Shown: one piece after another, positions 40,363 through 58,160 of the stretch
Layout of the letters: each line of letters starts with the position of its first letter
How positions within the stretch are numbered: position 1 is the first letter of the stretch
NCBI GenBank assembly: GCA_018692925.1
Contig: JABHLH010000019.1
Coordinates: forward strand, 63,322 to 127,321
Reading direction: 5' to 3'
DNA length: 64,000 nucleotides
Source of the DNA: an archaeon
GTDB lineage: Archaea; Nanobdellota; Nanobdellia; SCGC-AAA011-G17; GW2011-AR17
Translations under genes and position numbers: made by a program
The notes under the pieces: generated by a model
What the model was told of the DNA's origin: nothing
The model's input: only the letters and a program-made list of their open reading frames with translations
Database searches by the model: none

Positions 40363-41032
40363 TGTTTTTTTTTAAAGTTTTATATTTTTTTAACTTTCTT
40401 TCATTTTTAGGCTCGATATACTTAAAGAAATTTTTTACACTTGAATTTTTTCGAATTACTACTTGATGAACATTACCTCTGCAAATATAGGAAGATATAT
40501 TAAATTTTTTTAATCCCTCATGAATATCTTGTGCAAATACATAAGATTTCATTGAATATTTTATCAGAATATAATTATAACCTTTATCTTTTTGTAAAGT
40601 TACACAACCATCAGTATCAAATAAACCTCTAAGAAATGCAGCAAGATGAGAATTTTTGGAAAGTATAGAAAGTGGCAATCTTAGATCCTTTTTAGGACCA
40701 ATTGGACATTGAAGAAAAATTGAAAGAAAATTAAAGATTGTTTTTGATCTCCCCCTTAAAGTATAACAATTAGCAAAAATTTCGTGTTTTAAATAAATTC
40801 CAAATAATTCTTTAAATAATTGATCTATTCTTGCCATATATTTAGTATCGAACCTAGAGTCACCAGAATATGTAAAACAATAATCTGATTTTTTAGAATC
40901 ACACCTTAAACATCCATCACCATAATGAATACCTAAGAACTCAGAAAGTTTTATATCCATTTTTTTAGGAAGAATAATCTCTCTAGAAAAATCATTTCTG
41001 CCTCTTTTTATAATTGTTGTATCAAAATTCAT
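40355..41032 (-). CDS. LAGLIDADG-family homing endonuclease (double-motif, free-standing)
   Basis: Two LAGLIDADG motifs: LGIHYGDGC and LRGLFDTDGCV. The stop codon overlaps the 3' end of the tRNA-Trp gene. Confidence 0.75.
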   Translation of the reverse strand: MNFDTTIIKRGRNDFSREIILPKKMDIKLSEFLGIHYGDGCLRCDSKKSDYCFTYSGDSRFDTKYMARIDQLFKELFGIYLKHEIFANCYTLRGRSKTIFNFLSIFLQCPIGPKKDLRLPLSILSKNSHLAAFLRGLFDTDGCVTLQKDKGYNYILIKYSMKSYVFAQDIHEGLKKFNISSYICRGNVHQVVIRKNSSVKNFFKYIEPKNERKLKKYKTLKKNMG

Positions 41033-41116
41033 TAATTATATTTGAAGAATAAGAGTTAATAAAAATTTATTAGAAAAAATTGAAAATCTTTCGAAGTTTT
41101 TGAAAAATTTCCAGAA

Positions 41117-41566
41117 TTAGAATTGATTAGGAGTTGTTTGTGTACTAATTGGTCTAATTTCTATTCTTATATTAGGTTGAGTTCTATAAACATAATTATC
41201 TCCATTATATTCTAATTCTTCAGAAGCATATCCAGTAATAACTGTTTTAGAAGATTGGAAATCATAAATAAAAGTATAATCTGGATCTTGATCTAACTCT
41301 TCTAAATAAATATTAAAGTAATTTTCAAAATTTATTACAAAATTAGAATCAGATGCTTCCTTTGCAGCAATTTTAGCAGAAAGTTCTATATAATAAATAT
41401 CTTTTTCAGCTTCAAAATAAGTATTGAACACCTCAATTTGTTTTTCACCTAAATATAAATCTGAACCACCAGGAGAATTTTTTCCAGTATTACCATAGAA
41501 CATAAAAATTGCTATTATAAAACCTAAACAAACAATGTACATAAAAACGGCAGCTTTTTTATTCAT
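41117..41566 (-). CDS. hypothetical N-terminally anchored protein (pilus-locus member)
   Basis: N-terminal MNKKAAVFMYIVCLGFIIAIFMF with one TM, in an operon with pilin-like genes. Confidence 0.4.
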   Translation of the reverse strand: MNKKAAVFMYIVCLGFIIAIFMFYGNTGKNSPGGSDLYLGEKQIEVFNTYFEAEKDIYYIELSAKIAAKEASDSNFVINFENYFNIYLEELDQDPDYTFIYDFQSSKTVITGYASEELEYNGDNYVYRTQPNIRIEIRPISTQTTPNQF

Positions 41567-42159
41567 TCTCTAACCTCCAATACAACTTTTAATTTTTTAT
41601 TACCATCAACATCAGGAATAAATATTTCAGCACTTTGAGGCTGTGATAACAAATAAGGATTTGTAGCTCCAGAAAGAGCATAAGCAGTTGCTTCTAGAGT
41701 ATCAATACCAGAACAAAAAAAAACATATTCATTATTTTCATTAATCAAATAAAATTCCCAATAACCCGAAATAGGTTCTAAATTTTCACTTAGTTTAGAT
41801 TTTAAATTAGCATCACAATTTAAACTTTTAGTAAATGCTAAACTTAAGAAATCTTTGAATAAAAAGTCATCTTGGGGGTCGGGATGATTCCTATCCATGT
41901 AAGAGAGTATTTCACCAAAAGTATAATCTTCATTTACTTGTACTTTTAAAACATTAATTAGATCAGTTTCTAAAAATTCTGTATCATAAGCACTAATTTC
42001 ATCATTGTTTGGAAGAACAGTATCTAAAATTGCTCCAATACTAAACTTTGAAATTACATTGAAAGCTATTAATATTAAAACTATAACAGCAATAAGAACT
42101 AAAGAAGTTCCAAACTCAGTCCAATCATCCATCATTGCAAAACCTTTTTTCTTTAACAT
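41563..42159 (-). CDS. pilin-like protein (class III signal peptide candidate)
   Basis: MLKKKGFAMMDDWTEFGTSLVLIAVIVLILIA: basic residues, G, then a hydrophobic segment. Confidence 0.4.
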   Translation of the reverse strand: MLKKKGFAMMDDWTEFGTSLVLIAVIVLILIAFNVISKFSIGAILDTVLPNNDEISAYDTEFLETDLINVLKVQVNEDYTFGEILSYMDRNHPDPQDDFLFKDFLSLAFTKSLNCDANLKSKLSENLEPISGYWEFYLINENNEYVFFCSGIDTLEATAYALSGATNPYLLSQPQSAEIFIPDVDGNKKLKVVLEVRE

Positions 42160-42635
42160 TCTGTAATTTCAAAATGGAATTCTAAAATGGAACTCTCAAT
42201 CTCCCCTTTATTGTAAACTTGAACTAATTTGTTTATTGTTTGTTTATTATTAAATTCGTTTGAACCAATTGAATTGGAGTTTAAAGTTAATCCTATTTTT
42301 GTATCAATAAATCTTCGCATAATTTCAAATTCAATATGATCAGGATCTAAATAAGTAAAGCAAGAACTTAAAGATTCATTTGTATATTTATCCATATCAA
42401 TTGTACCTACGACAGTTCTTTCTGTATCTTCGTCATAATAAGTCATACAACTTGAATCAGTTAATACTTTTGCCATCATAATTTCATGATAAAACGGATC
42501 TACACATTCCACCTTAATTTTTTGACTCTCAGTAGTTATATTTATGAAAGCAAGAAATAACATAGAAATTACAACAATAGCAACAATAAAATAAAGCATT
42601 TTTCCTCCAAGCATCTGACCTTTATTGGTTTTCAT
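42153..42635 (-). CDS. pilin-like protein (class III signal peptide candidate)
   Basis: MKTNKGQMLGGKMLYFIVAIVVISMLF. Confidence 0.4.
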   Translation of the reverse strand: MKTNKGQMLGGKMLYFIVAIVVISMLFLAFINITTESQKIKVECVDPFYHEIMMAKVLTDSSCMTYYDEDTERTVVGTIDMDKYTNESLSSCFTYLDPDHIEFEIMRRFIDTKIGLTLNSNSIGSNEFNNKQTINKLVQVYNKGEIESSILEFHFEITEC

Positions 42636-42969
42636 AAGTTAAGTCTCCATTTTTAGATTCAAAATGTAAAGTATAATTATTAAAATAATTCTTTAACTTA
42701 GGATTTTTTATTACAGAAACTGTAGAGTCGTCTATTTCAACTTCATAAGTAGATTTGATTTTATAGTCATATTCAATATAACCTGGTGAAGCTGATAGAG
42801 TTTCAGAAAGTAAAGATAAATCTTCTTGTAAATAAAAATGATTAATATTTGAATAAGAATCAGGGTTCATTGCTAAAGAGAGCAAAATACCAACAATTAA
42901 AATTCCCAAAACTAATTCTATAATGTAATAAGACTGAAGTTCAACACCAGCCTGCCCTCTTTTATTCAT
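42622..42969 (-). CDS. pilin-like protein (class III signal peptide, E at +5)
   Basis: MNKRGQAGVELQSYYIIELVLGILIVGILL: KRG, then Glu at +5, then a hydrophobic helix. Confidence 0.45.
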   Translation of the reverse strand: MNKRGQAGVELQSYYIIELVLGILIVGILLSLAMNPDSYSNINHFYLQEDLSLLSETLSASPGYIEYDYKIKSTYEVEIDDSTVSVIKNPKLKNYFNNYTLHFESKNGDLTYENQ

Positions 42970-43041
42970 AAGATTTTATTAGCCTTTTTTATTTATATAA
43001 TTATAGGAAGATTTAAAATGTTTTAAACTAAAGAAATTAAT

Positions 43042-43245
43042 ATGAAAGATGGTCATAGAAGAAGTTTTGTAAAAACAATTAGCTATAGATTTTCTTCAAC
43101 AATTCTTACAGCAGTTATTGTATTTATTTTTACAAGAGATTTTACTCTTTCCTTAGGTGTAGGTGCAGCTGAGTGGATATTCAAATCATTATGGTATTAT
43201 TTCCATGAAAGAATGTGGAATTGGTATAAATGGGGTAAACATTAA
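43042..43245 (+). CDS. DUF2061-like small membrane protein
   Basis: 67 aa with RRSFVKTISYRFSSTIL...FHERMW, resembling DUF2061. The only + strand gene inside the minus-strand pilus operon. Confidence 0.4.
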   Translation: MKDGHRRSFVKTISYRFSSTILTAVIVFIFTRDFTLSLGVGAAEWIFKSLWYYFHERMWNWYKWGKH

Positions 43246-44267
43246 ACAAAAGCTTCATCTTCTTGAACATTAGAAAAATCATAATCATAAGGAACAATTA
43301 CCATTTGAGAATCTTTTACTAATAAAGTTGGTGAGACTCTAATTTGAACATTTTTATTTAGGTCACCATTAATAAAAGGAGATAAGTAAGTGTAAGTATT
43401 TGTTTCTGTGTCTATTACATCCCCAACTCCAACAACTTCTGTAATCTCTACACTGTATAAAGTAAAAGCTTCAGCACCAGCTAACTCATTTGAAAATTCT
43501 GCTACATGAGTGATTTTTGTTTCAATAGAATGAGAACTCAAAATACTTTTTGTAGATAAATCAATAAGTTCAATCTTACTAGGATATATATTAAATCCGC
43601 TTTCTTCACCTAAGAAATCTAAATCTAACTCACATTTTGAGTCTCCAGTATTTTGTAAACAAGATTCATAAGTTTCAATTTCTTCTTCAAAATTAGAAGC
43701 AAGTAATTGTTCTTTTACTGTTACACAAGCATTATCTTCACAAAAATAAATAGTGTTATCTAACCTTTCATAAGAAACAAACACAACTGCATCTTCTTCC
43801 CCCTCTCTAAGAACACCATTTGAAGGACAAGTTTTATCCAGAAAACTTAATACACTATCACTAAATTTATTACAAGCAATAGGATCATCTATACAAATAT
43901 CTTCTAAGTCAGAAATAATTGAAAAAAATGGACCCTTACATAAACATAAACAAGGAGAATTCTCACACAAATCTTGAGGAACTGTAATCTCTTCTTTACA
44001 AGGTTTTTCTGTACCTTCAAAATCTCCGCCATTATTAAAAGAAACTAAATAATAACCTTCATGTAAATTAAATAAAGTTGTATTAGAAATACCAGATTCT
44101 AAATTTTCAAGATTAAAAACTAATGATTCGAAACTCTGAGAAGTTTCAGAAGAGTCTAAAAGTTCTGTTCCGATAATTACAGAAGTTGCAATACCAACTA
44201 CAGCAATAATCATTGTTACAGTTACTAAAATTAAGTAGTCTGTTGTACCCCTTTTTGTAGATATCAT
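43242..44267 (-). CDS. pilin-like/minor pilin protein with Cys-rich ectodomain
   Basis: MISTKRGTTDYLILVTVTMIIAVVG, then a 300-aa Cys-rich domain. Confidence 0.4.
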   Translation of the reverse strand: MISTKRGTTDYLILVTVTMIIAVVGIATSVIIGTELLDSSETSQSFESLVFNLENLESGISNTTLFNLHEGYYLVSFNNGGDFEGTEKPCKEEITVPQDLCENSPCLCLCKGPFFSIISDLEDICIDDPIACNKFSDSVLSFLDKTCPSNGVLREGEEDAVVFVSYERLDNTIYFCEDNACVTVKEQLLASNFEEEIETYESCLQNTGDSKCELDLDFLGEESGFNIYPSKIELIDLSTKSILSSHSIETKITHVAEFSNELAGAEAFTLYSVEITEVVGVGDVIDTETNTYTYLSPFINGDLNKNVQIRVSPTLLVKDSQMVIVPYDYDFSNVQEDEAFV

Positions 44268-44449
44268 TCTAAAGCTAATCCTTCAGTTGCTTGTCCTAAC
44301 TCTGATCCTAAAGTAGAAGATGTTCCACTTAGAGTATCAACAAAACCAGCAATTTGATCTTGGAAGATAATAGCAACAACAATTAAAACCATTAAAGCTA
44401 GAATCAGTAAGATCATAAACCTTAGAGTTAGTTCACCTTTTTTTGTCAT
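44264..44449 (-). CDS. small pilin-like protein
   Basis: MTKKGELTLRFMILLILALMVLIVVAIIF. Confidence 0.45.
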   Translation of the reverse strand: MTKKGELTLRFMILLILALMVLIVVAIIFQDQIAGFVDTLSGTSSTLGSELGQATEGLALE

Positions 44450-44485
44450 AATTAAAATAAAAAGAATAAAAGTATTTAAAAGTTA

Positions 44486-44827
44486 CTAGGTAGAGCTTTT
44501 ACTTTTACACTCATTATCACTATTCCAAACTTTATTTAATTCTTCGAAATAATCACAATTTTTAACTGATTTACCTTGAGTGTCTTCTAAATCATCTGGG
44601 AAACCTGGGTTATCCCAACCACCTATATTATCCGTTGAACAGTATAAACTACATTTTGATTTGTATAAAGCCAATTGTTCTGCTGATGTTGAACCAACTT
44701 CTTCTGTCTGTTTAAATAAGTTACTTAATCCTCCTGTGAAGAATAAAGCAACAAGGATCAAAGCAATTAAAGCAAGTACTGCTAAAATTACAAAGTTTAA
44801 AGAAATATCCATACCTTTTTTATTCAT
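44486..44827 (-). CDS. pilin-like protein
   Basis: MNKKGMDISLNFVILAVLALIALILV, then a Cys-containing ectodomain. Confidence 0.45.
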   Translation of the reverse strand: MNKKGMDISLNFVILAVLALIALILVALFFTGGLSNLFKQTEEVGSTSAEQLALYKSKCSLYCSTDNIGGWDNPGFPDDLEDTQGKSVKNCDYFEELNKVWNSDNECKSKSST

Positions 44828-44876
44828 TGTGTTACACCTCTGAGTATATTTATATGAGAGAGATATTTAAAGTTTT

Positions 44877-45734
44877 CTATCTGACACTTTCAATATTATG
44901 ACAATAAGTTACATCTGATCCTCTAAAGAAGTTTGTAACTTCGGTACGATCCCCTACACTTATTCCAAAACCATGAAAATTATCTGAAGAATAAATTTCA
45001 ATTGGTCGCTCAATCATTTCTGTTAAAATACAAATTTTAGTATCATCTATTTTGTAAAAGATTGGTGCAGACTTTAGTGTATAAGAATAACTAGAAGTAT
45101 CATCACAAGCAGGAGGCCAACCTAAACAAACATTTGTTTCAATTTTTTTATCTTCATAAAATTCAAAAGTATAATCTGCACCTTGTTCATTAGGCCATTT
45201 ATCTGTCCTTTCATCTTGCCAATAAAGATATAGATGATTTATAGAGGCTTGATAATTACCCAAGATCTGAAAATTATCCGGAAAGATACAACCTAACTCA
45301 TTATTTGAACCAGTATTTTTATTACTTACAAAAAGACCTAAAGTATAAGGTTTTGTTTCTCTAGCTTCGTAGGTATTATCTAAAGCATTTAATACTGAAA
45401 CTGCAGAAGCTCCTTGAGAGTAAGAGTTTTGAATTAAATAAAATGAAGATTCTGAAACAGTACCCAAAGTTTGAGAATAGCAAAGACAATCCGTTCCGGC
45501 AATCGTGTTAAAACCCCCATAACAATAATCCTCAATGTTTGAAAATAATTTTTCAAAAGATGCTACAGTTTGAGATGTTGCTTCAGCTTCATCATCAACT
45601 ACAAAAACTTTATCAAAAGAATCTATAATAATACTGAAGATTTCACTAGATTGTTCATTAAATACAACCCCCATTACAAAAATGATTATAAGAATTATAA
45701 GTGCCGCAATAATAGTGTTACTCATTTCTGCCAT
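44877..45734 (-). CDS. N-terminally anchored pilus-locus protein
   Basis: MAEMSNTIIAALIILIIIFVMGVVF, then a 250-aa ectodomain. Confidence 0.4.
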   Translation of the reverse strand: MAEMSNTIIAALIILIIIFVMGVVFNEQSSEIFSIIIDSFDKVFVVDDEAEATSQTVASFEKLFSNIEDYCYGGFNTIAGTDCLCYSQTLGTVSESSFYLIQNSYSQGASAVSVLNALDNTYEARETKPYTLGLFVSNKNTGSNNELGCIFPDNFQILGNYQASINHLYLYWQDERTDKWPNEQGADYTFEFYEDKKIETNVCLGWPPACDDTSSYSYTLKSAPIFYKIDDTKICILTEMIERPIEIYSSDNFHGFGISVGDRTEVTNFFRGSDVTYCHNIESVR

Positions 45735-45735
45735 T

Positions 45736-45951
45736 TTATTTCCCTAGCGCTCCTGTAATAAGATGTTTGATTGCTTCAATTGCTTTTTCTTTTAATGTTG
45801 AAGAAAAAAACACAATTGCAATTAAGACAATAATTATTAATATGAATGCAGCGATATATTCCCAAGCAAGTTCTCCCTTTTTACTAGGCAATATTTCCTT
45901 CATCCAATGGTGGACCATAAGATAAACACCCCCTATCATCTGGGTCTTCAC
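45736..45951 (-). CDS. small Flp-like pilin candidate
   Basis: SKKGELAWEYIAAFILIIIVLIAIVFF matches the G-x4-EY Flp/Tad prepilin motif plus a hydrophobic helix. The true start may be the internal MKEIL. Confidence 0.45.
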   Translation of the reverse strand: MKTQMIGGVYLMVHHWMKEILPSKKGELAWEYIAAFILIIIVLIAIVFFSSTLKEKAIEAIKHLITGALGK

Positions 45952-46765
45952 CCACTAAGTTTTCTACAAGAATTCCGGAAGTGACTTGATTCCCAGTATC
46001 ACTAAATAAAAATGCAACAGCACCTCCAGCAATAATAAGTGCACTAGGTCCAACTACAAAAGAAAATATTGCACCATAAGCAAGTATTGTACCTGAGGCT
46101 CCTAGTTTTGCCATAGTTACAAAAATATTATCTGCAGATTGTGAATCAAAATTTCTATCTGTTGTAATTAATATCCTATCACCTTCACTAGTTCCAATTA
46201 AATCTTGATCATCATAAAAAATAATATAATAATATTCATCAGTACTTAATTTAATATCTTTAATTCCTTCAGACTCTGTATCAAAACAAAGAGTTTGGTA
46301 ATTTGTATTTTGTTCTAAATAATTATAAGCAGAATGGATAGCATCCGTTTCTGAAGCATCTTTATGTGAAATGGAATAATCAAAATATTCTACCAAACTG
46401 ATATCTTCTTTTGGACTAAAAGCATAAGCAAAATAAGTTTCATCAATTGCAGCACCAAAATCACAAGAGCCTTCTTTATACATCCACCAAGTGTCAGTTA
46501 ATACTGTCGAAAATTCTTCCATAGAGATTGGATCTTCAACTACATTAAATCTACATGCTGTTGGAAAATATGAAAAAAATCCACCACCACATTTAGCTGT
46601 GTTTGTCATCCAACAAGCTGTTTGAGCAAAAAAATCTGAAGTGAAAGTACCTTGCATAAATAAAACAAGACTAACTATTGATAAAATTACAATTACTGCG
46701 ATAATTAATTTAGCAGTTTGCTCTGGAGCTAACTTACCTCTTTTGTTTTTAGCCAAGGATTGCAT
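45884..46765 (-). CDS. pilin-like protein
   Basis: KNKRGKLAPEQTAKLIIAVIVILSIVSLVLF has E at +5 after the G. Confidence 0.45.
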   Translation of the reverse strand: MQSLAKNKRGKLAPEQTAKLIIAVIVILSIVSLVLFMQGTFTSDFFAQTACWMTNTAKCGGGFFSYFPTACRFNVVEDPISMEEFSTVLTDTWWMYKEGSCDFGAAIDETYFAYAFSPKEDISLVEYFDYSISHKDASETDAIHSAYNYLEQNTNYQTLCFDTESEGIKDIKLSTDEYYYIIFYDDQDLIGTSEGDRILITTDRNFDSQSADNIFVTMAKLGASGTILAYGAIFSFVVGPSALIIAGGAVAFLFSDTGNQVTSGILVENLVGEDPDDRGCLSYGPPLDEGNIA

Positions 46766-46848
46766 TTTTTACACCTAATAATATAACTGTAACAGCGAGG
46801 AATAATACAACAATTGCAATTAAGATTACTAATGTTCTCCCTGTCATT

Positions 46849-49008
46849 TTATATTTGTCCTACTGAAAGTGCCAATAAGTTGAAAGCAAATATTGTTACA
46901 CCTGCAATTAATATGTATAAGAGTGTGCCTCTATATAAATTTTTACCTAAAGTATATTCTTCATTTAATTTGTCTACACCATTCTCAATACCGTTTGCAA
47001 GTACTGTTAATACTATAATCATCTGTACAACATAAATACCCACAATCATTTGTAAATAAAATGGAGGAATGATTTTATCAATTGGAAAAATGTTTGCAAT
47101 ATTACTAGCACCAGATAAAACACTTGCATCTGAACCAGAAGTTGCAGATTGTAAGGATGTTCCTAAACTAGAAATAATAGCAGTAATCATTGTACCAATA
47201 CCAACTACAATACCAGCAATTAATGGAGTTAGAAAACTAACTTGTGATTTCATTGAAGATGTAATTTCAGATAATAAATCTTTTAACCTTTCAGAAACTT
47301 TGTAAATTTTATCTAAATAATCAGCAATACTAAGTAAAGCTCTTGATACAACCATAGGACCTTTCCTAGAAGATTCTACTAAAACTTTCATTGTACTTTC
47401 AATTAAGGATGAAGGGTAAGTTAAGATTGCACCATTCTTTTCATTGAAAATTGCATCTTGTAAATTCATACCAATGCTTCGAATATTTTTGTCAACAATA
47501 CCTAAGAATACTCCAGTAGGAGTTCCAGCCAAACCTCTTGCAACTTCACCAAAAGCCATTTCCGAAGGCATACCTCCACCAATCCTGTTACCAAGTTGGA
47601 AGATTGCTCCTCTGAATTCAGTTTCAAGTTTTTTTGTTTCTTCTCTAATTTTTATTAATTTGTTTGATCTAATAGAAAAATAAGATCCAATTCCAAAAGC
47701 TAAACCAATAGGAATGAATAAACTTAACATAGTAGCACCAAGACCAAATGGACCAATAGACTCACCAGTGTCTAAAACTCTGTAATCTAAAAGCATAATA
47801 TTATCTGTAATAAATAATTCTGTTGCAGGATCTATAAAATGCAAAATAACTGGAGCAAATCCAATCATTAATAAGACGAATAATAAAAATATTGCTACAT
47901 GTTTGGGTTCAATTAATACTTCTTTATCTTTAGATAATTTAAGAGAGAATTTTCTAAGTTTTTCAAATTGAGGTAAACTAGTAATGTCGGATTGAGCATA
48001 ACCTATTGGCCTCTTTGCTAACATAGTATAACCAAAATAAAATACTGCGAAAGGTAAAATTAAGTTGTAAAGCATTGCAATGTGATACCATTTGATCCCC
48101 ATGAAACTTCCAATTAAAGGTAAAATGATTAAACCTAAAATAGGTAAGATAACTCCAAGCATGTGAAGCATTGTCATAGGAGACTTTACTTCTTGAGCAT
48201 AATGAAGCATACTATCATAAGTTCCCTCTAAAATAACTGAAAGAGATTTTTCTAAAAGTTCTATCCTTCTTTTTTCTTGTCCTTCAAATAATGAAGATTC
48301 AATTAAATGAAATGATTCTACAAAAGCTAAATTGTGATCTTTCCAACCAACTAAATAACTTTCTAAAGATTCTTGAACTGTTGGATATTTTTTAGTTTCA
48401 GCATCCCATAAAATTTTTCTTAAGTCTAAAGATAAAGGTTCTGCAACATGTTCACCTGCAAATTTAATTGCATGTTCTAAATTAGAAGTGTGACGCATGT
48501 AAATTACAGTATACAAAATACAAAGAACCATTTGATTAGAAGCTTGTAATCTTCTCTTTTGTGCTAAGTGTTGAGGAAATTTTGATAAAGGTAAGAAAAG
48601 TAAAACTCCACAAATAACCAACATAAAAGGAACTAAAAGTTGTGTGAAACCAAAAAAGAAAGTGACCATAAAAACAAATAAACCTAAAAGAATAAATGAA
48701 AACATTGTTAAGATTGCAAAAGTATAAGCTGCAGCAGGAGTTATGTTTAAATGAATTTGATCAATTGCATCTTGCATTTCTTTTTTTACTTCTTCCTTTG
48801 CAGGAGCTAAGTCAATTAAAGAATGTGCAAAATTACAAGCTCTTTCGTAAAGAGTGTCTTGTATATGTAAAGCTTCTTGTCTAAAAGTTTCGTAATCTTG
48901 AGTAAATTTATCAGAAGAAGGTTGGTCCATTAAAGAGCCTGTATTCGCACCTAACTTAGTACCATACTTGTTCATAATATTTTGAAACCTAGGATCTATC
49001 TTCACCAT
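46849..49008 (-). CDS. type IV pilus/archaellum assembly platform membrane protein (FlaJ/TadC/PilC-like, T2SS-F domains)
   Basis: 719 aa. Two repeated cytoplasmic helical T2SS-F-like domains alternate with TM blocks. Located in the same operon as the FlaI-like ATPase and the pilins. Confidence 0.6.
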   Translation of the reverse strand: MVKIDPRFQNIMNKYGTKLGANTGSLMDQPSSDKFTQDYETFRQEALHIQDTLYERACNFAHSLIDLAPAKEEVKKEMQDAIDQIHLNITPAAAYTFAILTMFSFILLGLFVFMVTFFFGFTQLLVPFMLVICGVLLFLPLSKFPQHLAQKRRLQASNQMVLCILYTVIYMRHTSNLEHAIKFAGEHVAEPLSLDLRKILWDAETKKYPTVQESLESYLVGWKDHNLAFVESFHLIESSLFEGQEKRRIELLEKSLSVILEGTYDSMLHYAQEVKSPMTMLHMLGVILPILGLIILPLIGSFMGIKWYHIAMLYNLILPFAVFYFGYTMLAKRPIGYAQSDITSLPQFEKLRKFSLKLSKDKEVLIEPKHVAIFLLFVLLMIGFAPVILHFIDPATELFITDNIMLLDYRVLDTGESIGPFGLGATMLSLFIPIGLAFGIGSYFSIRSNKLIKIREETKKLETEFRGAIFQLGNRIGGGMPSEMAFGEVARGLAGTPTGVFLGIVDKNIRSIGMNLQDAIFNEKNGAILTYPSSLIESTMKVLVESSRKGPMVVSRALLSIADYLDKIYKVSERLKDLLSEITSSMKSQVSFLTPLIAGIVVGIGTMITAIISSLGTSLQSATSGSDASVLSGASNIANIFPIDKIIPPFYLQMIVGIYVVQMIIVLTVLANGIENGVDKLNEEYTLGKNLYRGTLLYILIAGVTIFAFNLLALSVGQI

Positions 49009-49032
49009 CTTTTATTAAATAATATAAGAATT

Positions 49033-49593
49033 TTATTTATATAGTTGTTGGATTTCTTCAAAAAGTTCTGGGAGTTCTTTGTATATCTCGAAATGTGCCC
49101 TGTTTTCTAAAACTATAGATTTTGTATTTAATCTTTCTTCAAATAATTTTGCATCAGTTACAGGAACATATTCATCATCTGTAGAAAATAAAGCTATAAT
49201 CTTATCACAGTTTGTTTTTACTTTTTCTAAATCAATTGGTGTTTCTAACCAAGGTTTTGCAATTTCTTTATCTTCTTTAGATGCATCTTCTAAATCTAAA
49301 TTAAAAAAAGGAGCAACTAAAAATGAAGCTTTTATTTTTGTATTTATTTTTTCTAAAAATCTAAGTATAGTTTGGCAACCAATACTGTGGCCAATAAAAA
49401 TAGATTCTTCATCAGCATCTTTTGCAATCTCTTGTAAGTGTGGAACCCAAGTTTCTATTTTAGGTTCTCCGGGATTTGGCATTTGTGGGATAATAACTTC
49501 AAAATTTAATTCTTCTAATTTTTCTTTTAAGCAAGGAAACCAACAATTATTTGGATTACCCATCCAACCATGAACAAGATATGCTTTTTTCAT
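49033..49593 (-). CDS. YdeN/RBBP9-family serine hydrolase
   Basis: LVHGWMGNP, nucleophile elbow GHSIGC, 186 aa. Typical of the PF06821-like esterases. Confidence 0.55.
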   Translation of the reverse strand: MKKAYLVHGWMGNPNNCWFPCLKEKLEELNFEVIIPQMPNPGEPKIETWVPHLQEIAKDADEESIFIGHSIGCQTILRFLEKINTKIKASFLVAPFFNLDLEDASKEDKEIAKPWLETPIDLEKVKTNCDKIIALFSTDDEYVPVTDAKLFEERLNTKSIVLENRAHFEIYKELPELFEEIQQLYK

Positions 49594-49631
49594 AAGATAA
49601 AAAAGAAAATAAGAATTAAAAAAGGTTTTGA

Positions 49632-51812
49632 TTAAAGTTTCTTAAATTTTAACAACAAAGAGTTTGTTACAACACTAACACTACTCATAGCCATAGCTCC
49701 TCCAGCAATTATTGGAGAGAGTAACCAACCAGTGTAAGGATATAAAACTCCAGCAGCAATAGGTATCCCTAGAACATTGTAAAATAAAGCCCAAAATAAA
49801 TTCCCTCTAATCTTAGACATTGTTAACTTACTAAGCTTAATTGCTTTTGCAACATCAACAGGATTGTCCCTCATCAAAACTATGTTTCCAGTTTCCATAG
49901 CAACATCAGTTCCAGAACCCATTGCAATTCCAATCTCAGCTTGAGCTAAAGCAGGTGCATCATTTATTCCATCACCAACCATTGCAACTTTTCCTTTTCT
50001 TTGTAATTTTTTAACATAGTTTGCTTTATCCTTAGGTAAAACTTCAGCAAAAACATTTTTGATGCCAACACTTTTTGCAATAGCTTTTGCAGTTCTTTTA
50101 TTGTCTCCAGTGATCATGTAAACTTTTATGCCCATCTTTTTTAATTTTGAAACAGCTTTTCCAGAAGATTCTCTCAATTTATCAGCAACAGCAATAATAC
50201 CTAATAACTCTTTACCTGAAGCTAAGAACATTACAGTCTTTCCTTCTTCTTCTAACTTGTTAATATTATCTAATTCTTTTTTTAAGCTTACTTTATTATC
50301 TTTCATTAATTTAGTATTACCAAAGAAATATTCTTTTCTTCCGACCTTAGCTTTTATACCATGACCAAGTATAGCTTTGAAAGCAGTTACTTTAGGAATT
50401 GAAACTTTTTCTTTCATAGCATGATTAATTATTGCTTCAGCTAAAGGATGTTCAGATTGTTTTTCTAAACCTGCTACAATTTTTAAAATATCCTTTTCTT
50501 TATTTTTACCAAAAGTAATCAAATCAGTTAGTTCAGGTTTACCTTTTGTAATTGTTCCAGTTTTATCGAAAATAACATATTTAATTTGGTGTGCAGTTTC
50601 TAAAGCTTCTCCACCCTTGATTAAAATCCCCTTGTTTGCACCCTTACCAGTACCAACCATAATTGCAGTTGGTGTAGCTAAACCTAAAGCACAAGGACAA
50701 GCAATTACTAATACAGCAACAGAAGCAATTAATGCAAATGAAATTCCAGCACCAAAAGTTACCCAAGTTATGAAAGTTATCAAAGAAATTGCAATAACAG
50801 TAGGAACAAAGTAAGCTGAAACAAGATCAGCAAACCTTTGAATAGGTGCTTTTGTTTCTTGAGCTTCTTCAACTAATTTAATAATTTGTGCTAAAGTTGT
50901 ATCTGCTCCAATCTTTGTAGCTTTAAATTGGAATGCTCCTAATTTGTTTATTGTTCCACCAATAACTAAGTCGCCAATATTTTTTTCGATAGGAATACTT
51001 TCACCTGTGATCATACTTTCATCAATAGAAGAGTGACCACTAGTTAGTTTACCATCAACAGGAATTTTTTCTCCAGGTTTTACAAGAATAATATCTCCTA
51101 CAATAACTTCTTCAATAGGAATTCTAATCTCTTTTTTATTTCTAATTACTAAAGCAGTCTTTGGACTTAAGCCCATTAATTTTTTTATTGCATCAGAAGT
51201 TTTGCCTTTAGCAATTGCTTCTAACCATTTACCCATAACAACTAAAGTGATTAAAATTGCTGAAGTTTCGAAATACTGTCCTAAACTAGGATTAAATAAT
51301 ACAGCATATACACTAAAGAAATATGCAGCACTTGTACCAAGAGCAATTAAAGAGTCCATGTTTGCAGTTTTGTTCTTTAAAGCTGCCCATGCACCTAAAT
51401 AAAATCTTTTTCCAATATAAAATTGAATAGGTGTAGCTAATGCCCATAATATATAATCATTAAAAGGGATATGAATTTTCATCCACATAAAAATCATTCC
51501 AATAACAAAAGCTGGAATAGCAAAAATAAGACTAAGAAGAAACATTTTTTTGTAGTAATTTATTTCTTTCTTTAAAAAATCGGCATGTTTATCCCCAGCT
51601 TTCAAAAATGATGCATTATAACCTTTGCTTTTTATGGTTTTAATAATTTCTTTTTCTGAAATAATCTTCTCATCAAAAATTATCCTAGCCTTAGAAGTAG
51701 CAAAATTAATTGTTGCTTCATGGACACCTTTAGTCTTTTTTAAAGACTTATCAATAACTGTAGCACAACTAGAACAAGTCATACCACTGATTTGTAATTT
51801 TGTTTTCTTCAT
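49632..51812 (-). CDS. copA: copper-translocating P1B-type ATPase
   Basis: N-terminal [16 protein letters not shown] motif ([11 protein letters not shown]), [17 protein letters not shown]. Confidence 0.9.
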
Positions 51813-51833
51813 TTCTTATTTTTCCTTAATATG

Positions 51834-52265
51834 TTAAAACATATAAGCTTTACTTTCTAGATCAGCTTCTGAAATAACAATATAATCTCCTTCAATTACA
51901 AAATCTAAATTAGATGGCCAACATCCTCCGCCAGTATTAGTAGATCCTAAATCATCAATACTAAAAACTCTACCACACTTAATACATTCAACATCAGTTC
52001 CTCTTTGAGCATAACCTTGGTATCCTCCACAAACATCACATGCATCAAAAGCAGTTCGTACTTCTCCATCAGAACCTAAGACTGCGAAGTAAGTTATAGT
52101 TTTACCATTATAATCATGAGTGTATTTTGTTAGTTCAGAAGAAATTTCTGAAATAGGAATTTTAATAAGTCCTTCTTCTAAAACTGCGTCTCCAGTAATT
52201 GTACTACTACAGCCTGTTACAATTAATGTAAACAAAGCTAATAAAATTATTATTGTTTTTTTCAT
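51834..52265 (-). CDS. lipoprotein-like Cys-motif protein (CxxC...CxxC), metal-module member
   Basis: Signal peptide with VTGCSS lipobox. DACDVCGG...CIKCG...GGGCWP. Possibly DUF2318-like. Confidence 0.4.
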   Translation of the reverse strand: MKKTIIILLALFTLIVTGCSSTITGDAVLEEGLIKIPISEISSELTKYTHDYNGKTITYFAVLGSDGEVRTAFDACDVCGGYQGYAQRGTDVECIKCGRVFSIDDLGSTNTGGGCWPSNLDFVIEGDYIVISEADLESKAYMF

Positions 52266-52269
52266 TTAT

Positions 52270-52335
52270 TTAACCTCCACAGCCTCCGCCGCAACCTCCG
52301 CCACAGCCTCCACCGCAGCCTCCACCACAAGAAGT
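52270..52335 (-). repeat. 12-nt tandem repeat encoding (CGGG)n
   Basis: The plus strand reads cctccgcc(g/a)ca(a/g)cctcc with about 5 units. Confidence 0.7.
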
Positions 52336-53718
52336 TCCACTTGGAACAGCTGCAGCTTCATTTATACTTTCTTCAAGATCTGCACTTGAATAATCATCAA
52401 GATCATCAACTACAATAAAGGTTCCAGGAATCATTCCCATCCAACAACTCCAAGAAACTATTCCTTCTTCTGTAGCTGTGAACTCAATTGTTTGTTCACC
52501 ATACTCAAGATCAAAAGCTAAACCTAACTTTGGAACTTGTATTGCATTGTTACAACCATTTAATTCTTCAGCATTAATAATCCAATGGACGGGCACATCT
52601 TTTTCAATAACAAATAAATCTGTTTGCCAACCATATCTATCAACAGTTAAATAAATTTCTTGATAACCAGATTTCATAACTGCTAAACTATCTGATTCTA
52701 CAGAATCAATATTATTTGCAGAAACTAAACCAGCTAAAGAATTAAAATCATAACCAGTACCAGTTAAAGCTAATGCATTGTTAACCATTAATAGACCTAA
52801 GATAATTACTATGGCACCAGATGCTTTCAAAATTTTGTGAGTCATTTTGCTTGAAACTAAACTTGCAAAAAAACCAAAACCAAGCATAACAGGTAAAGTA
52901 CCTAAGGCGAAAACAAAAAGGAGAGTTGCGCCTTCAATAATACTTCCAGTTCCTGCTGCCATAATATAGATTGCTTGCAAAGGGCCGCAAGCAATCATTA
53001 GTCCATTTAGTAGGCCAATAATTAAAGGACTAGAACTTCTGTTTTTCCCAACAAACTTGTTAAGGAATTTGGGAGTCTTAAAAGAAAGTTTTCTTAAGAC
53101 AGGGAAAATATTTAACATTTTTAATCCGAAGATTATTAAAAATAAACCAGCTATTAATCCAGCAATACCTCTCATCATAGGAGTGAAAGCAATTATTGAA
53201 CCTAGTAAACCAAAAAATGCTCCTATTAAAGTATAAGAAACAGTTTTACCTAAACCATACATGAAATGAGATTTGTAAGGTTTTCTTCCAGCTTCGACAT
53301 CTTTTGCAGTGTAAGAAACAACGAAACCACCACACATACTAATACAATGAAAACCTGTTAGTAAACCTACAACAAATAATAAACCATAACCCATCCCTGA
53401 ACTTATTTCAGGTAATTGAATTGCATTAGTTAAATTAATTAAAAAATATAAAGCGATAACTATTCCAAGAATTGCAAATGCCCAAGCCCAATATTTTCTT
53501 TTTGAATTATTTTGATCACAAGAATAACCTTTCTCTGAAATTTTAGATTGTATTTCTTTTAAGCTAATTAAATCTTCATCATATGTTACTTCAGCTTTTT
53601 GAGTTGCATAGTTTACTTTAATTTTTTGAATACCATCTAAATCAGAAACTTGTTTTTTTATAATAGTTTCACAAGAACCACAAACCATACCATCTATTTT
53701 AAAATTTGTTTTTTTCAT
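52270..53718 (-). CDS. HMA-domain membrane protein (DsbD-like/TauE-like TM core) with C-terminal (CGGG)n tail
   Basis: N-terminal HMA GMVCGSCE. Six to eight TM helices with an internal CISMCGG. C-terminal soluble domain ending SCGGGCGGGCGGGCGGGCGG. Confidence 0.55.
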   Translation of the reverse strand: MKKTNFKIDGMVCGSCETIIKKQVSDLDGIQKIKVNYATQKAEVTYDEDLISLKEIQSKISEKGYSCDQNNSKRKYWAWAFAILGIVIALYFLINLTNAIQLPEISSGMGYGLLFVVGLLTGFHCISMCGGFVVSYTAKDVEAGRKPYKSHFMYGLGKTVSYTLIGAFFGLLGSIIAFTPMMRGIAGLIAGLFLIIFGLKMLNIFPVLRKLSFKTPKFLNKFVGKNRSSSPLIIGLLNGLMIACGPLQAIYIMAAGTGSIIEGATLLFVFALGTLPVMLGFGFFASLVSSKMTHKILKASGAIVIILGLLMVNNALALTGTGYDFNSLAGLVSANNIDSVESDSLAVMKSGYQEIYLTVDRYGWQTDLFVIEKDVPVHWIINAEELNGCNNAIQVPKLGLAFDLEYGEQTIEFTATEEGIVSWSCWMGMIPGTFIVVDDLDDYSSADLEESINEAAAVPSGTSCGGGCGGGCGGGCGGGCGG

Positions 53719-53912
53719 TCTGCTTTGTAACCTTCCTTCCCAATTACTTTTTTAATATCCTCAAGAGAAATTTTAGTTTCATCAAAGGTGATTGTGATTA
53801 TTTCTTTTTCAAAAGAAATATCTTTAACACCTAATTCTTCTAATGAGTCTTTTATTAGCATCTCACAACTTTTACAATGCATGCCACCTACTTTGAATTT
53901 TTCTGTTTTCAT
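53715..53912 (-). CDS. copZ: copper chaperone CopZ (HMA domain)
   Basis: 65 aa with GMHCKSCE and a ferredoxin-like fold. Confidence 0.8.
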   Translation of the reverse strand: MKTEKFKVGGMHCKSCEMLIKDSLEELGVKDISFEKEIITITFDETKISLEDIKKVIGKEGYKAE

Positions 53913-53965
53913 GAAGAAAATATTGTTGTAGTCCTTTTAATACCATTCGAGAGAAATTAAAGAAC

Positions 53966-54011
53966 GTTATCGTTTATATCTTAAGAATTCTTTAGAGTTA
54001 TCGTTTATATC
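53966..54011 (-). promoter_or_regulatory. two exact 15-nt direct repeats (GTTATCGTTTATATC) upstream of copZ: candidate operator/TATA elements
   Basis: Copies at 53966-53980 and 53997-54011, spaced 31 nt. On the coding strand they read GATATAAACGATAAC, which contains TATA-like cores. Confidence 0.5.
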
Positions 54012-54018
54012 GTAAATA

Positions 54019-54549
54019 TCAAAATTTCTTTTTTAGGTAGATTTCTTTGGTCTTTCCAGCCTCTTTTCGGTAAATAATGTCCCTTTCTTCCAACTTTTTT
54101 AATACTAAAGAAAGCAAAGTTTTGGATATACCAGTCTTGTATCTCAAAGTAGATTGTTTGATTCCTTCTTTATCATGAACTGCCTTTAAGATCTTTTGTT
54201 CTTGATCGTTAAATCCTGAAACAAATGCTTTGAATTCATCCTTTTCTTTTGCAGTTTGTAATGCAGATGAAACTTCTTTATGTTGTTCCACTAATATTTT
54301 TTGAGTTTTATCAAAGTAGATGAGATAAATTCCAAGTATTAAAATTGCTAAAGTTATAATCCCCCCAAGATAAAATAAAGTATAATCTCGATCTTCATGT
54401 AAACAAGAACCATCATCTAAATAACATGAACCTTGCTCGTCAATGATTGTAGAAATATATTGATCTTCTTGTGCTTTAAAGTAGAATAAAAATACTAGTA
54501 GTAATACTGCGATAATGATTAGTATGGTACCAATTTTATTCTGATTCAT
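54019..54549 (-). CDS. membrane-tethered winged-helix transcription regulator
   Basis: Two TM helices flank a CYLDDGSC loop. C-terminal wHTH (EQKILKAVHDKEGIKQSTLRYKTGISKTLLSLVLKKLEERDIIYRK). Sits directly upstream of the cop genes. Confidence 0.5.
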   Translation of the reverse strand: MNQNKIGTILIIIAVLLLVFLFYFKAQEDQYISTIIDEQGSCYLDDGSCLHEDRDYTLFYLGGIITLAILILGIYLIYFDKTQKILVEQHKEVSSALQTAKEKDEFKAFVSGFNDQEQKILKAVHDKEGIKQSTLRYKTGISKTLLSLVLKKLEERDIIYRKEAGKTKEIYLKKKF

Positions 54550-54580
54550 ATGTTGAAAAATATATTTGTAGTATATATAG

Positions 54581-56857
54581 TTACTGATTTTTCAATTCTT
54601 CTTTTAGCCATTCTTCCCATCTTTCTTTAATGAGTTTTGTATCTTGAGAGCCTACATCATTTTTTACTTCTTCAGAAATTCTATAAAACTTTTCATTTGA
54701 TTTCAAAGAAAACTCTGCTTCTAAAATATTTTTATCATTAATTTTTTTAGAATAATCAACTAATAAAGATTTAATTTCAGCTCTTAATTTAATATTGTCC
54801 CAAATTGCATCCCAGTTTCCAACCCATTCTTTAACTCCACCACCAATTGCTTTCAAAACTTCAGAGTCACCATTGATTAAATCAGGAGTAGGTTCTAACA
54901 TATCAGTTTTAGCATTGTATTTCATTAAGTCAACAAAACCATTTTCTTGTAAAGGATCATCTTCCCAGGTTTTTCTAACTTCAGTAATAGAAGTAACTCT
55001 TCTCATTTTGCTCATACCAGAAGCAGATTGAATTGGAGAACACATAACAATAATATCAGTTGCCTTGAAAGAAGTTTTTGGTACACCTAAATCATTTACA
55101 ACTCTGTCAAAAATACCATAAGGAGAATCTCCGTGAATAGTTCCTGCAACAACATTAGCAGATGCACCAATTCTCATTGCTTCATAAAGTGCAAGAGCTT
55201 CAGTACTTCTAACTTCCCCTACAATAAGTGCAGAATCACCAAGTCTTAAAGAAGTTCTAATTCCTTCATCAGCTGGAACCTCTGCTCCACCTTTTACTAA
55301 AGCAGATCTAACTTTTAAGGGTTGAATGTTATAACCAAGTTTTCTCATTGCTTCACTTGGAAGTTCTAAAGTATCCTCAACAGTTAATACTCTATACTTT
55401 CTCATAATTTCTAACAACATAGAACCTAAGAAAGATGATTTACCAGAGGACCTAGTTCCTGCAACTAAATGTGTTCTTGCTCCGTGAATTGTAAAACTTA
55501 AAAGACCTGCTCCTAATGGAGAAATCATTTTGTTCTCAATAAATAAAGGTAAAGTCCAAGGTTTATCTCTGTGTCTTCTAAAAGACATACCATAACCATA
55601 AGGATTTAATGGTTTACCAATAATTGAAAGTCTTGATCTTGCTTTAGGTAAAATTACTTCTGTATCTAAAATAGGGTTTGCTTCGTCTAAAGGCCTTCCA
55701 GAAAGTAATCTTAACTTTGTTGCCCAACTTTCAAAATCATTTACTGTTGGAGTAATATTTGTTGTACATTCATTGTGATCATTGTGTAAAAGAAAAATTG
55801 GAACTTGGCCCATAGGAGAATTTATTGTTAAGTCTTGAACATTAGGATCTTCTAATAATAATTCAATAACACCAAAACCAATTGTGTGCCTCACTAAAAT
55901 CTCTGTAAGATTTTCTATTTCTTCAGGAGAAAGAAACATCCCTTTTTGTTCAGCAAGTTCTTGAATCATACCTTTACCTATATTGGTAAAAGTTCTACGC
56001 ATTTTATGAGGGTCTAAAAATTCTTCATTTCTGGGTTGATGTTCAGAAAGAACTTTTCTTGCTAACTCAATTAACTCATATTGGTCCTCTGTAAGATTAA
56101 ATTCTGGAGGATTAATTTGATATAATTTTTTAATGTCATCTTTTAATTCATAAACTGTTACATCTGTTGTAGGATTTATTTTGTAAATTGCTAATTGTTT
56201 TCCATCAAGAGGAGGAGAAGTTACTAACTTAGTATACATAAAATCTGGAGTTATTGAAGGTTTGAAAAATAATTTGTAAATTTCTCTATTGTTTAAAGTA
56301 TAACCTGGAAGATATTCTCTTGCCAAATCAATAAGTTTAGTTTTATCTAATTGTATAAAAATTTGATTTAACATATCTAAATATATTTGTAAAGATTGTT
56401 TTTGTGTAATGTCAGTTGTAGATTTTAAAATAATATTATTCTGCCTAAGCAATCTTTTTAACTCTACATAAGCACCAAGAGGATCTGTTTTTAATAAAGT
56501 GAAAAGAATAAATCTTAATGGATCAAACCTTTGACCTAAAACTTGTGGAGGATCAGAAGCTAAACCAAAATTTTCTAACCTTGTAGCTTTTTTACTCTTT
56601 ACAAAATAATTGTAAATATTTGCAATTTCTATTAAAAGTTGAGTTTGATCATAACTATAATTATAATTTCTCCTTTGTGAAAAAATTAAACGAGAAATAG
56701 AAGGATTTTCAATTAATTTTTCAATAGCATCAAGCATAACTAAATGATTATCTTCAATTGAAGGTATGTGAGAAATGGATTCATAATTAATTTTAAGAAT
56801 CTCATCCTCTCCCTCTTTTAAGATTTCAGTATTATTTGGTGTTTGTGTGTAAACCAT
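54581..56857 (-). CDS. type IV pilus/archaellum assembly ATPase (FlaI/TadA/VirB11 family) with long N-terminal extension
   Basis: Walker A GTRSSGKSS, Asp-box VLTVEDTLEL, Walker B DSALIVGEVRS, His-box GTIHGDSPYG. 758 aa. Confidence 0.8.
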   Translation of the reverse strand: MVYTQTPNNTEILKEGEDEILKINYESISHIPSIEDNHLVMLDAIEKLIENPSISRLIFSQRRNYNYSYDQTQLLIEIANIYNYFVKSKKATRLENFGLASDPPQVLGQRFDPLRFILFTLLKTDPLGAYVELKRLLRQNNIILKSTTDITQKQSLQIYLDMLNQIFIQLDKTKLIDLAREYLPGYTLNNREIYKLFFKPSITPDFMYTKLVTSPPLDGKQLAIYKINPTTDVTVYELKDDIKKLYQINPPEFNLTEDQYELIELARKVLSEHQPRNEEFLDPHKMRRTFTNIGKGMIQELAEQKGMFLSPEEIENLTEILVRHTIGFGVIELLLEDPNVQDLTINSPMGQVPIFLLHNDHNECTTNITPTVNDFESWATKLRLLSGRPLDEANPILDTEVILPKARSRLSIIGKPLNPYGYGMSFRRHRDKPWTLPLFIENKMISPLGAGLLSFTIHGARTHLVAGTRSSGKSSFLGSMLLEIMRKYRVLTVEDTLELPSEAMRKLGYNIQPLKVRSALVKGGAEVPADEGIRTSLRLGDSALIVGEVRSTEALALYEAMRIGASANVVAGTIHGDSPYGIFDRVVNDLGVPKTSFKATDIIVMCSPIQSASGMSKMRRVTSITEVRKTWEDDPLQENGFVDLMKYNAKTDMLEPTPDLINGDSEVLKAIGGGVKEWVGNWDAIWDNIKLRAEIKSLLVDYSKKINDKNILEAEFSLKSNEKFYRISEEVKNDVGSQDTKLIKERWEEWLKEELKNQ

Positions 56858-56973: not shown

Positions 56974-57468
56974 TTGAGTGATTCCTCGTTATTTTATACC
57001 ATGGGACAAGAACAAGGACAAGTGGATTTTACACAAGCTATGAATGAATTAGCTAATAGACTAAGAGTTTTGGAAAGTAAACATGGAACTTATGCTGAAA
57101 AATTATTAGTTATGAATCAAAATATGATTGAAGAACATAAAAAAACAATAAGTGAAATTAAATCTGTTCGACAAGATTTAGTGAATATAAATAAAGATAT
57201 TGAAACTGTGAAAAATGTTGTAAAACATTTAAGTGATGAAGCAGGAAAATTTGCTAAAAATCAAGATGTGAAAGTTCTTCAGAAGTATATAGATTATTGG
57301 AACCCTATGAATTTTATGACAGAGAAAGATGTTTTGAAATTAGTTGATAAAATTTTAGGAGAAAAAGGAGTTATCCATAAAAGAGTTGAGAAAATGGAGA
57401 AAGAAATTGATGATAGTCTTGAAACTAAATTTGGATTAAATCCAGAGGGAGAAAAAGATGGCGAATGA
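56974..57468 (+). CDS. coiled-coil protein, unknown function
   Basis: The track start at 56974 is GTG, 4 nt after an AGGAGAGG SD; an alternative ATG is at 57001. Heptad-rich. Divergent from the FlaI-like gene. Confidence 0.4.
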   Translation: MSDSSLFYTMGQEQGQVDFTQAMNELANRLRVLESKHGTYAEKLLVMNQNMIEEHKKTISEIKSVRQDLVNINKDIETVKNVVKHLSDEAGKFAKNQDVKVLQKYIDYWNPMNFMTEKDVLKLVDKILGEKGVIHKRVEKMEKEIDDSLETKFGLNPEGEKDGE

Positions 57469-58141: not shown

Positions 58142-58160
58142 TTTCTTTTTTTTTATATTA

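Follow-up and report, generated by a model that had tools for sequence, protein, structure and literature searches.

The 64-kb stretch of archaeal contig JABHLH010000019.1 analysed here (assembly GCA_018692925.1, positions 63,322 to 127,321; hereafter the window; G+C content about 30%) carries, between window positions 41117 and 56857, genes for an ATPase, a membrane platform protein and a series of small membrane-anchored proteins. From the genes present, the statistics of their leaders, the conserved gene order and the folds of both core proteins we propose, with a probability of roughly 0.78, that these genes encode a Woesearchaeota-specific type IV filament assembly machine, an archaeal type IV pilus that polymerizes peptidase-processed subunits. 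The system is normally one operon of ATPase, platform and about eleven small genes, and is split here by a 5.5-kb insertion carrying copper-resistance and hydrolase genes. A first-pass annotation, made from the sequence alone, had described a single 15.7-kb Tad-like locus. Its genes do lie nearly all on the minus strand, but they form two pieces separated by unrelated cargo (49033–54549), whereas ATPase and platform are adjacent in 58 of 75 loci that hold both.

The assembly ATPase and the platform protein

The gene at 54581–56857 (minus strand) encodes a 758-amino-acid (aa) protein that belongs by sequence, motifs and fold with the secretion ATPases FlaI, CpaF and Archaeoglobus GspE (afGspE), as its first-pass label of FlaI/TadA-type ATPase had implied, and that is an ATPase of the superfamily of type IV filaments (TFF). 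Pfam T2SSE matches the core region alone (E = 3e-11), which is flanked by an N-terminal extension of about 295 aa and a helical C-terminal extension of about 100 aa. With the single sequence as query, phmmer against the PDB retrieved afGspE (6e-25), CpaF (2e-24), FlaI (5e-12) and VirB11 (3e-4); a profile of 40 ATPase sequences scored 113.8 bits against afGspE, 104 against CpaF, 68 against FlaI, 39 against VirB11 and 26 against PilT. The Walker A (G467TRSSGKS), Asp box (VEDTLE), Walker B (ALIVGEVR) and His box (TIH) motifs are intact. Clustering with VirB11 and small proteins devoid of class III signals, the pattern that the first-pass annotation expected of a non-pilus system, was not what we found: VirB11 reached just 3e-4 and class III leaders are strongly enriched (p = 3e-8, below). 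A VirB11 or type IV secretion system reading was rejected on the ATPase scores and the gene content.

The ATPase core was aligned with 23 representatives of its nearest clusters and with the aligned parts of afGspE, CpaF and FlaI (339 trimmed columns), and a neighbour-joining tree was built; the tree is crude, includes no Epd, Aap or Ups sequences and gives a coarse placement. The window ATPase joins clusters named Micrarchaeota and Thermoplasmata, among which are its nearest named relatives, in a large clade to which none of the three references belongs. The distances separating the window ATPase from CpaF (0.76), afGspE (0.82) and FlaI (0.84) are similar to one another and larger than those between the references, which span 0.55–0.73 (afGspE–FlaI 0.55, CpaF–FlaI 0.71). 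Because of this tree position and these distances, we regard the ATPase as an archaeal branch that is divergent and not specifically close to CpaF. Many orthologous ATPases are about 1275 aa long and carry a LAGLIDADG intein of about 515 aa within the Asp box, between VED and T (P0122, P0129, P0134 and P0180); the window allele is intein-free.

The second core component is a 719-aa protein with about seven hydrophobic segments, encoded as a single fused gene at 46849–49008 (minus strand). Its sequence has no match in Pfam, NCBIfam or the PDB, a 28-sequence profile included. The predicted structure (pLDDT 75.5) contains a GspF/PilC-type platform domain, a cytoplasmic helical bundle, and on this model the protein is predicted to be a GspF/PilC/TadC/FlaJ-family platform, the platform component of the TFF superfamily. 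The first-pass call of a FlaJ/TadC-type platform was thus right, but it can be made from the fold only, since no sequence profile recognizes the 719-aa protein. Length is well kept, at 716–725 aa in two relatives with called genes and about 710–750 aa among the matches listed. More than 3600 homologues exist; nearly all are annotated as hypothetical, and just a few JGI records carry the label 'Flp pilus assembly protein TadB'. A platform so widely conserved yet mostly hypothetical marks an annotation blind spot, and because it escapes Pfam and NCBIfam, censuses of archaeal TFF systems that require a match to a platform model may miss the system.

We confirmed platform relatives at 227 sites of species-representative genomes and fetched 82 related loci, 80 of them from such genomes and two from the relatives with called genes. 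All 80 loci kept from the species-representative set are from Woesearchaeota/Nanoarchaeota. Lineage-named homologues are all labelled Woesearchaeota, Nanoarchaeota or Nanoarchaeia; many records read just 'archaeon', and 'bacterium' stands wrongly in a few. Platform and ATPase occur together in 75 of the 82 loci, with a gap of less than 300 nt in 58 of those 75. In both gene-called relatives the 716–725-aa membrane protein comes straight after the ATPase, and about ten small genes come next.

Small proteins and their class III leaders

Ten co-directional open reading frames (ORFs) occupy the minus strand from 41117 to 46765. We scored an ORF as class III when [KR][GA] lay among its first 14 residues and a 16-residue stretch with a mean Kyte–Doolittle value of at least 2 came no more than 8 residues later. 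This rule selected 8 of 11 ORFs within 41000–46800 and, of the 74 in the rest of the window, a single one (Fisher p = 3e-8). A ninth gene in the cluster, that of the short pilin S1, fits from a conserved internal start (MKEILPSKKG), and on this sequence rule nine window genes are predicted to encode class III signal subunits of the TFF type. The first-pass annotation had counted at least nine pilin-like genes and ascribed such N-termini to ten small-to-medium proteins; the N-terminal motifs it quoted are present in the sequence and nine genes stand, but a 285-aa protein proved motif-free, and a 32-aa micro-ORF had been overlooked. The sole ORF outside the cluster that fits the rule (29341–30780, plus strand; 479 aa, MKKG↓IVLLVFFLL, where the arrow here and below marks the expected cleavage site; weak DUF11 match) may be a further peptidase substrate or an ordinary secreted protein.

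Similar leaders recur at the same place in related genomes. Across 48 loci (47 related loci and the window), 274 class III-type ORFs lie 3′ of the platform, and the 37 loci that extend at least 7 kb downstream have a median of 7 each; their leaders are overwhelmingly MNKKG, MNKKA or MNKRG and are 4–8 residues long. Among downstream ORFs of the 47 related loci in which a basic residue precedes a hydrophobic stretch at the N-terminus, Gly or Ala follows the last Lys or Arg in 214 of 288 (74%), so the motif is specific and goes beyond the 'positive-inside' pattern. Clustering of the proteins gave a consistent order: a protein of about 280 aa, S1 (about 50 aa), a variable large protein, a four-Cys protein of about 113–149 aa, S2 (about 60 aa) and five further families. 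The ten-gene order is identical from the window to the AR20 genome (CP010426), and the ten-family order is kept among genomes whose platform proteins are just about 50% identical. Several frames overlap or abut (41563/41566, 42153/42159, 42622/42635, 44264/44267 and 45734/45736), which suggests co-translation.

Two of the subunits are short and helix-only. S1 (45736–45903, minus strand) is 55 aa long from its internal start, the mechanical ORF running on to 45951, and its mature part would comprise about 45 aa beginning ELAWEYIAAF. An alignment of 16 orthologues (A2) gives the consensus MxKKGxLAWEY, and orthologues read G↓[E/K/D]LAW[E/D]Y ahead of the hydrophobic helix, with the spacing of the bacterial Flp motif G↓xxxxEY. 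S2 (44264–44449, minus strand; alignment A3) has 61 aa, about 56 when mature, and begins MTKKG↓ELTLRFMILLILALMVLIVVAIIF; its orthologues read G↓[D/E]Lx[L/I][R/N]Y. None of 27 S1 and S2 sequences matched Pfam Flp_Fap at E ≤ 0.01 or Class_IIIsignal, a comparison in which such short hydrophobic sequences carry little statistical power. S2 matched Pfam Flp1_like (PF16982) at 7e-6 and 25.8 bits, under the cut-off of 33.5, and 4 of 11 S2 orthologues did so at sub-threshold scores (best 5e-7). The Flp-type G-x4-EY motif highlighted by the first-pass annotation is therefore real and conserved in the S1 family, but the resemblance is at the level of the motif alone.

A 113-aa pilin-like protein (44486–44827, minus strand; MNKKG↓MDISLNFVILAVLALIALILVALFFTGG) is paralogous to S1 and S2 and adds a small C-terminal domain with four invariant Cys; across 21 orthologues (alignment A4), G32, C59, C63, C91 and C107 are invariant. 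Immediately beyond the platform lies the micro-ORF (46749–46847, minus strand), which begins 2 nt past the platform stop codon and encodes 32 aa (MTGRTLVILIAIVVLFLAVTVILLGVKNAILG) with a single hydrophobic helix. Orthologues of 30–43 aa start between −3 and +42 nt from the platform stop in 50 of 80 loci, the distant versions bearing MNKKA or MKKG leaders, and the product may be the smallest pilin-like subunit that the system has.

The remaining proteins are larger, all encoded on the minus strand. The best conserved accessory protein is the 293-aa class III product of 45884–46765 (NKRG↓KLAPEQTAK followed by a hydrophobic helix; family 1), which is found in 42 of 47 loci, mostly at position 1 after the platform, contains Cys and has a Gly/Ala-rich hydrophobic C-terminal region. 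The 285-aa protein (44877–45734; family 6) begins MAEMSNTIIAAL and has an N-terminal hydrophobic anchor but no K/R-G cleavage motif; its orthologues begin MERE, MTDAP or MAEMSN, are motif-free in 15 of 18 cases and have a C-terminal domain of varying size (239–672 aa among orthologues), making it a candidate membrane-anchored accessory protein or adhesin and not a class III pilin. The 341-aa class III protein (43242–44267; MISTKRG↓TTDYLILVTV; family 4, 24 loci, variable length) has a large Cys-rich extracellular part and is a candidate minor pilin or adhesin. Next come class III proteins of 115 aa (42622–42969; MNKRG↓QAGVELQ, with Gln at +1 and Glu at +5; family 3, 25 loci), 160 aa (42153–42635; MKTNKG↓QMLGGKMLYFIVAIVV; family 2, 27 loci) and 198 aa (41563–42159; MLKKKG↓FAMMDDWTEFGTSLVLIAV; family 8, 9 loci). 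A 149-aa class III protein (41117–41566; MNKKA↓AVFMYIVCLGF; family 5, 23 loci, mostly at position 10) closes the conserved ten-gene series.

Glu at +5, which the first-pass annotation noted in several leaders and considered uncommon for archaeal pilins, occurs in 3 of 9 window leaders but is not general: it is present in 28 of 274 leaders across the loci and is not commoner than Glu at +1 to +3. The commonest +1 residue is Gln (50/274). The EppA-dependent DUF361 class of methanogens has the motif QXSXEXXXL, with Gln at +1 and Glu at +5 (PMC2910488). As this signature is known from that class, Glu at +5 is not foreign to archaea, a point the first-pass annotation had missed. None of the window small proteins matches the Pfam Class_IIIsignal/DUF361 model.

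Insertions and flanking genes

The cargo that separates ATPase and platform (49033–54549, minus strand) consists of six genes that are not part of the pilus system. By Pfam they encode a serine hydrolase (PF06821), a CopA-type P-type ATPase, an FtrD-like lipoprotein, an HMA-DsbD_2 membrane protein, a CopZ-like HMA chaperone and a membrane-anchored MarR/winged-helix regulator. Apart from the window, just its closest relatives (2 of 82 loci) have the copper genes. In the remaining 17 of the 75 loci with both core genes, the ATPase/platform junction holds 0.4–5.4 kb of varied cargo, including a GNAT acetyltransferase, nucleotidyltransferase/HEPN-like pairs, rubrerythrin and a hydrolase, and in two of these 17 the ATPase is inverted. 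The junction is a recurrent insertion site, also occupied in L005, L008, L009, L014, L018, L019, L025–L027 and L030. A repeat search of the copper-island flanks for insertion scars gave chance-level matches only.

Within the island, the spacer between the MarR-like and CopZ-like genes contains two copies, 31 nt apart, of a 19-nt direct repeat (GTTATCGTTTATATC[T/G]TAA; 53966–54015) and a palindrome (53979–53996), which together are a possible operator. The HMA-DsbD_2 protein ends in (CGGG)x5, encoded by a 12-nt tandem repeat (52274–52333); this tail presumably binds metal. A second gene foreign to the pilus system, the DUF2061 gene at 43042–43245 (plus strand; Pfam 1e-14), was correctly recognized in the first pass as nested in the locus. 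It lies in opposite orientation between two pilin-like genes and is found at this locus in 1 of 82 related loci.

Upstream of the ATPase, and divergent from it over a 116-nt spacer, two overlapping genes (56974–58141, plus strand) encode coiled-coil proteins of 164 and 227 aa that are possibly associated with the system. The pair adjoins the ATPase in 61–63 of 82 loci, with spacings mostly of 78–290 nt, and in L026 and L027 ATPase and pair are inverted as one unit. These genes open a block (56974–60911) that is conserved in at least 41 related loci and also holds three paralogous membrane proteins of about 185 aa with the N-terminal motif LGF(F/Y)DV.LPF.L.FT, a PRC-barrel protein and a TraB-family protein. 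Family searches assigned PRC and TraB only and gave no assignment for the flanking coiled-coil and membrane proteins. At the other end, after the last pilin-like gene, a free-standing LAGLIDADG-type ORF (40355–41032, minus strand) abuts a 106-nt intron-type tRNA (40257–40362, plus strand). Rfam reported two over-long tRNAs (126 and 106 nt) and a 5S rRNA, at 16939–17055, 30816–30941 and 40257–40362; ARAGORN reported zero tRNAs over the 64 kb. The 126- and 106-nt tRNAs presumably contain introns.

Filament model, alternatives and known systems

In the mechanism that we infer, precursors with very short MNKKG or MNKKA leaders would enter the membrane, where an A24 class III signal peptidase encoded elsewhere would cut the leader off after Gly or Ala. 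The hexameric ATPase would dock on the GspF-like cytoplasmic domains of the 719-aa platform, and ATP hydrolysis would lift processed subunits from the membrane into a helical filament, whose body would most likely consist of the helix-only short pilins S1 and/or S2, as in Flp/Tad and Epd pili, and would therefore be thin. The larger class III proteins (113–341 aa) may serve as minor pilins, as a priming or tip complex or as adhesins, and the leader-less 285-aa protein as a membrane-anchored accessory or adhesin. Woesearchaeota are abundant, uncultured and genome-reduced, and are thought to depend on other cells. Because of this reduced and probably host- or surface-dependent lifestyle, the likely role of the system is adhesive attachment. 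We know of no Woesearchaeal surface-filament machine that has been studied experimentally, and the conserved machine described here is the most obvious candidate for Woesearchaeal attachment.

Several observations weigh against this model. For the platform identity we depend on a structure prediction whose confidence is moderate (pLDDT 75.5). Internal duplication is typical of GspF proteins, and an hhalign comparison of the N-terminal with the C-terminal half of the platform did not find one, returning only a 5-residue LIES[ST] match (E = 0.16). The choice of major subunit is a guess, the 113-aa four-Cys protein being equally well conserved. In the window genome, 5.5 kb between ATPase and platform and the opposite-strand DUF2061 gene break up the operon, which might affect co-expression. 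Finally, neither a motif scan nor tblastn with 121 Woesearchaeal A24 queries (none at E < 0.01) found an A24 peptidase in the 64-kb window, in agreement with the first-pass annotation. Two related loci (L073 and L077) have, about 10 kb past the cluster, an ORF that contains a GGGDAK motif and matches Peptidase_A24 (PF01478) at 38.8 bits, above the cut-off; it belongs to a family of about 290 aa that is widespread in Woesearchaeota. Since Woesearchaeal relatives have this A24 family away from the cluster, a peptidase encoded in trans, elsewhere in the genome, is plausible.

That the small genes are unrelated membrane proteins with positive-inside N-termini, clustered near an ATPase by accident, has next to no probability in our view. 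The larger of them match no pilin family, and a basic N-terminus before a hydrophobic helix is also the generic design of signal anchors; against this stand the Gly or Ala after the last basic residue in 74%, the tight leader length of 4–8 residues, the ten-family order conserved at about 50% platform identity and the class III enrichment (p = 3e-8). An archaellum locus for motility is highly improbable. FlaI is the best NCBIfam model for the ATPase and JGI labels some orthologues 'archaeal flagellar protein FlaI', but the score of 116.5 bits is far under the equivalog cut-off of 550 (NF058587), family searches identified no FlaH, FlaF/G, FlaC/D/E, FlaX or archaellin families, and the short subunits are helix-only peptides of 45–56 aa, unlike archaellins of about 200 aa. 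The scores and the gene content effectively refute it. We consider it rather unlikely that the TFF machinery instead forms a short pseudopilus or surface scaffold for secretion, bindosome-like substrate capture or exchange of DNA or other material with a host cell. The many different class III proteins (9–10 plus the micro-ORF), several of them large and Cys-rich, would suit such a device, and a preprint proposes that archaeal TFF machineries are functionalized with non-pilin class III proteins. The ATPase also scores 57.5 bits against the bindosome BasE model, though far under the cut-off. However, at E ≤ 0.1 the class III proteins match neither a substrate-binding-protein nor an enzyme family, the neighbourhood lacks Ced-type and conjugation genes, and the two conserved helix-only subunits look just like filament-forming Flp/Epd pilins.

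The Tad-like label of the first-pass annotation finds support in the S1 motif G↓xLAW[E/D]Y, which mirrors Flp G↓xxxxEY, in the shortness of the pilins, in CpaF being among the best PDB sequence matches and in the name of the identical NCBI protein, 'CpaF family protein [archaeon]'. Even so, it is very unlikely that the locus is of the bacterial Tad/Flp type or directly sister to Tad. The platform is a single 719-aa gene, whereas Tad and Epd systems have a TadB+TadC or EpdJ/K pair, and the peptidase is unlinked. TadZ (MinD/ParA-like) and the RcpA secretin are not among the Pfam matches of ORFs from 40355 to 62558, and there are no TadE/F/G families here. S1 and S2 lack a Flp_Fap match, the ATPase reaches 109 bits against the TadA family model TIGR03819 (cut-off 373), and its tree distances show no special affinity to CpaF. 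The leaders of 4–8 residues differ from the long Flp leader, and the named relatives are all archaeal, bar occasional records mislabelled 'bacterium'. The fit with an archaeal ancestry of bacterial Tad pili that the first-pass annotation saw is accordingly not supported, as the evidence does not place the system on that lineage.

We return to the archaeal type IV filament model and to its known relatives. DPANN genomes were already known to carry type IV filament genes. Set against archaeal TFF systems at large (Makarova et al. 2016, PMC4858521), the platform here has diverged so far that Pfam T2SSF and NCBIfam miss it, the Woesearchaeal ATPase branch is separate from afGspE and FlaI, and only Woesearchaeota and relatives have the series of about eleven small genes with helix-only products of 45 aa and about 30 aa. 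In the literature searched we found no description of this Woesearchaeal architecture, with its profile-invisible platform, about eleven small genes, two helix-only pilins and micro-ORF. Archaeal 'system 2' loci combine an ATPase with extended N- and C-termini, a single platform gene and proteins with and without a class III motif (Sivabalasarma & Albers 2026 preprint). The Woesearchaeal layout is like that of 'system 2' (Makarova clade 2; Halo pilus PilB/PilC type), but the ATPase is not close to afGspE on the crude distance tree; as it lies away from afGspE there, and as no clade references were compared, we did not file the locus under 'system 2'.

The Epd pili of Methanococcus maripaludis ('system 1') offer the other close comparison. 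They share with the Woesearchaeal system a large cluster, many minor pilins and a major pilin without a globular domain, and their leader signature recalls the Woesearchaeal one, in which Gln at +1 is commonest and Glu at +5 occurs in some. Defining traits of the Epd and Tad clade are a platform split into two genes, with one T2SSF domain each, and short pilins (Denise et al., PMC6668835), and a major pilin without a globular domain is the hallmark of both pili (PMC6668835; 2026 preprint). Epd systems also have a peptidase of their own, named EppA in PMC2910488 and EpdA in the 2026 preprint, whereas the Woesearchaeal locus has one fused platform and no linked peptidase. An unlikely though more far-reaching idea is that the system represents a deep, unclassified branch of archaeal type IV filaments, with helix-only Flp/Epd-style subunits, the conserved G↓xLAW[E/D]Y pilin and the micro-pilin among them, and an unfissioned, extremely divergent platform, that is, a pre-fission relative of Epd and Tad. 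If this were true, the micro-pilin of about 30 aa would be the smallest known, and the system would bear on the origin of Tad from archaeal ancestors and on host attachment in DPANN. The short pilins with their Flp-like motif are in any case a point of comparison for the proposed archaeal ancestry of Tad pili. Set beside these systems, the locus is ordinary in kind: an unusually divergent, lineage-specific variant of the archaeal type IV pilus.

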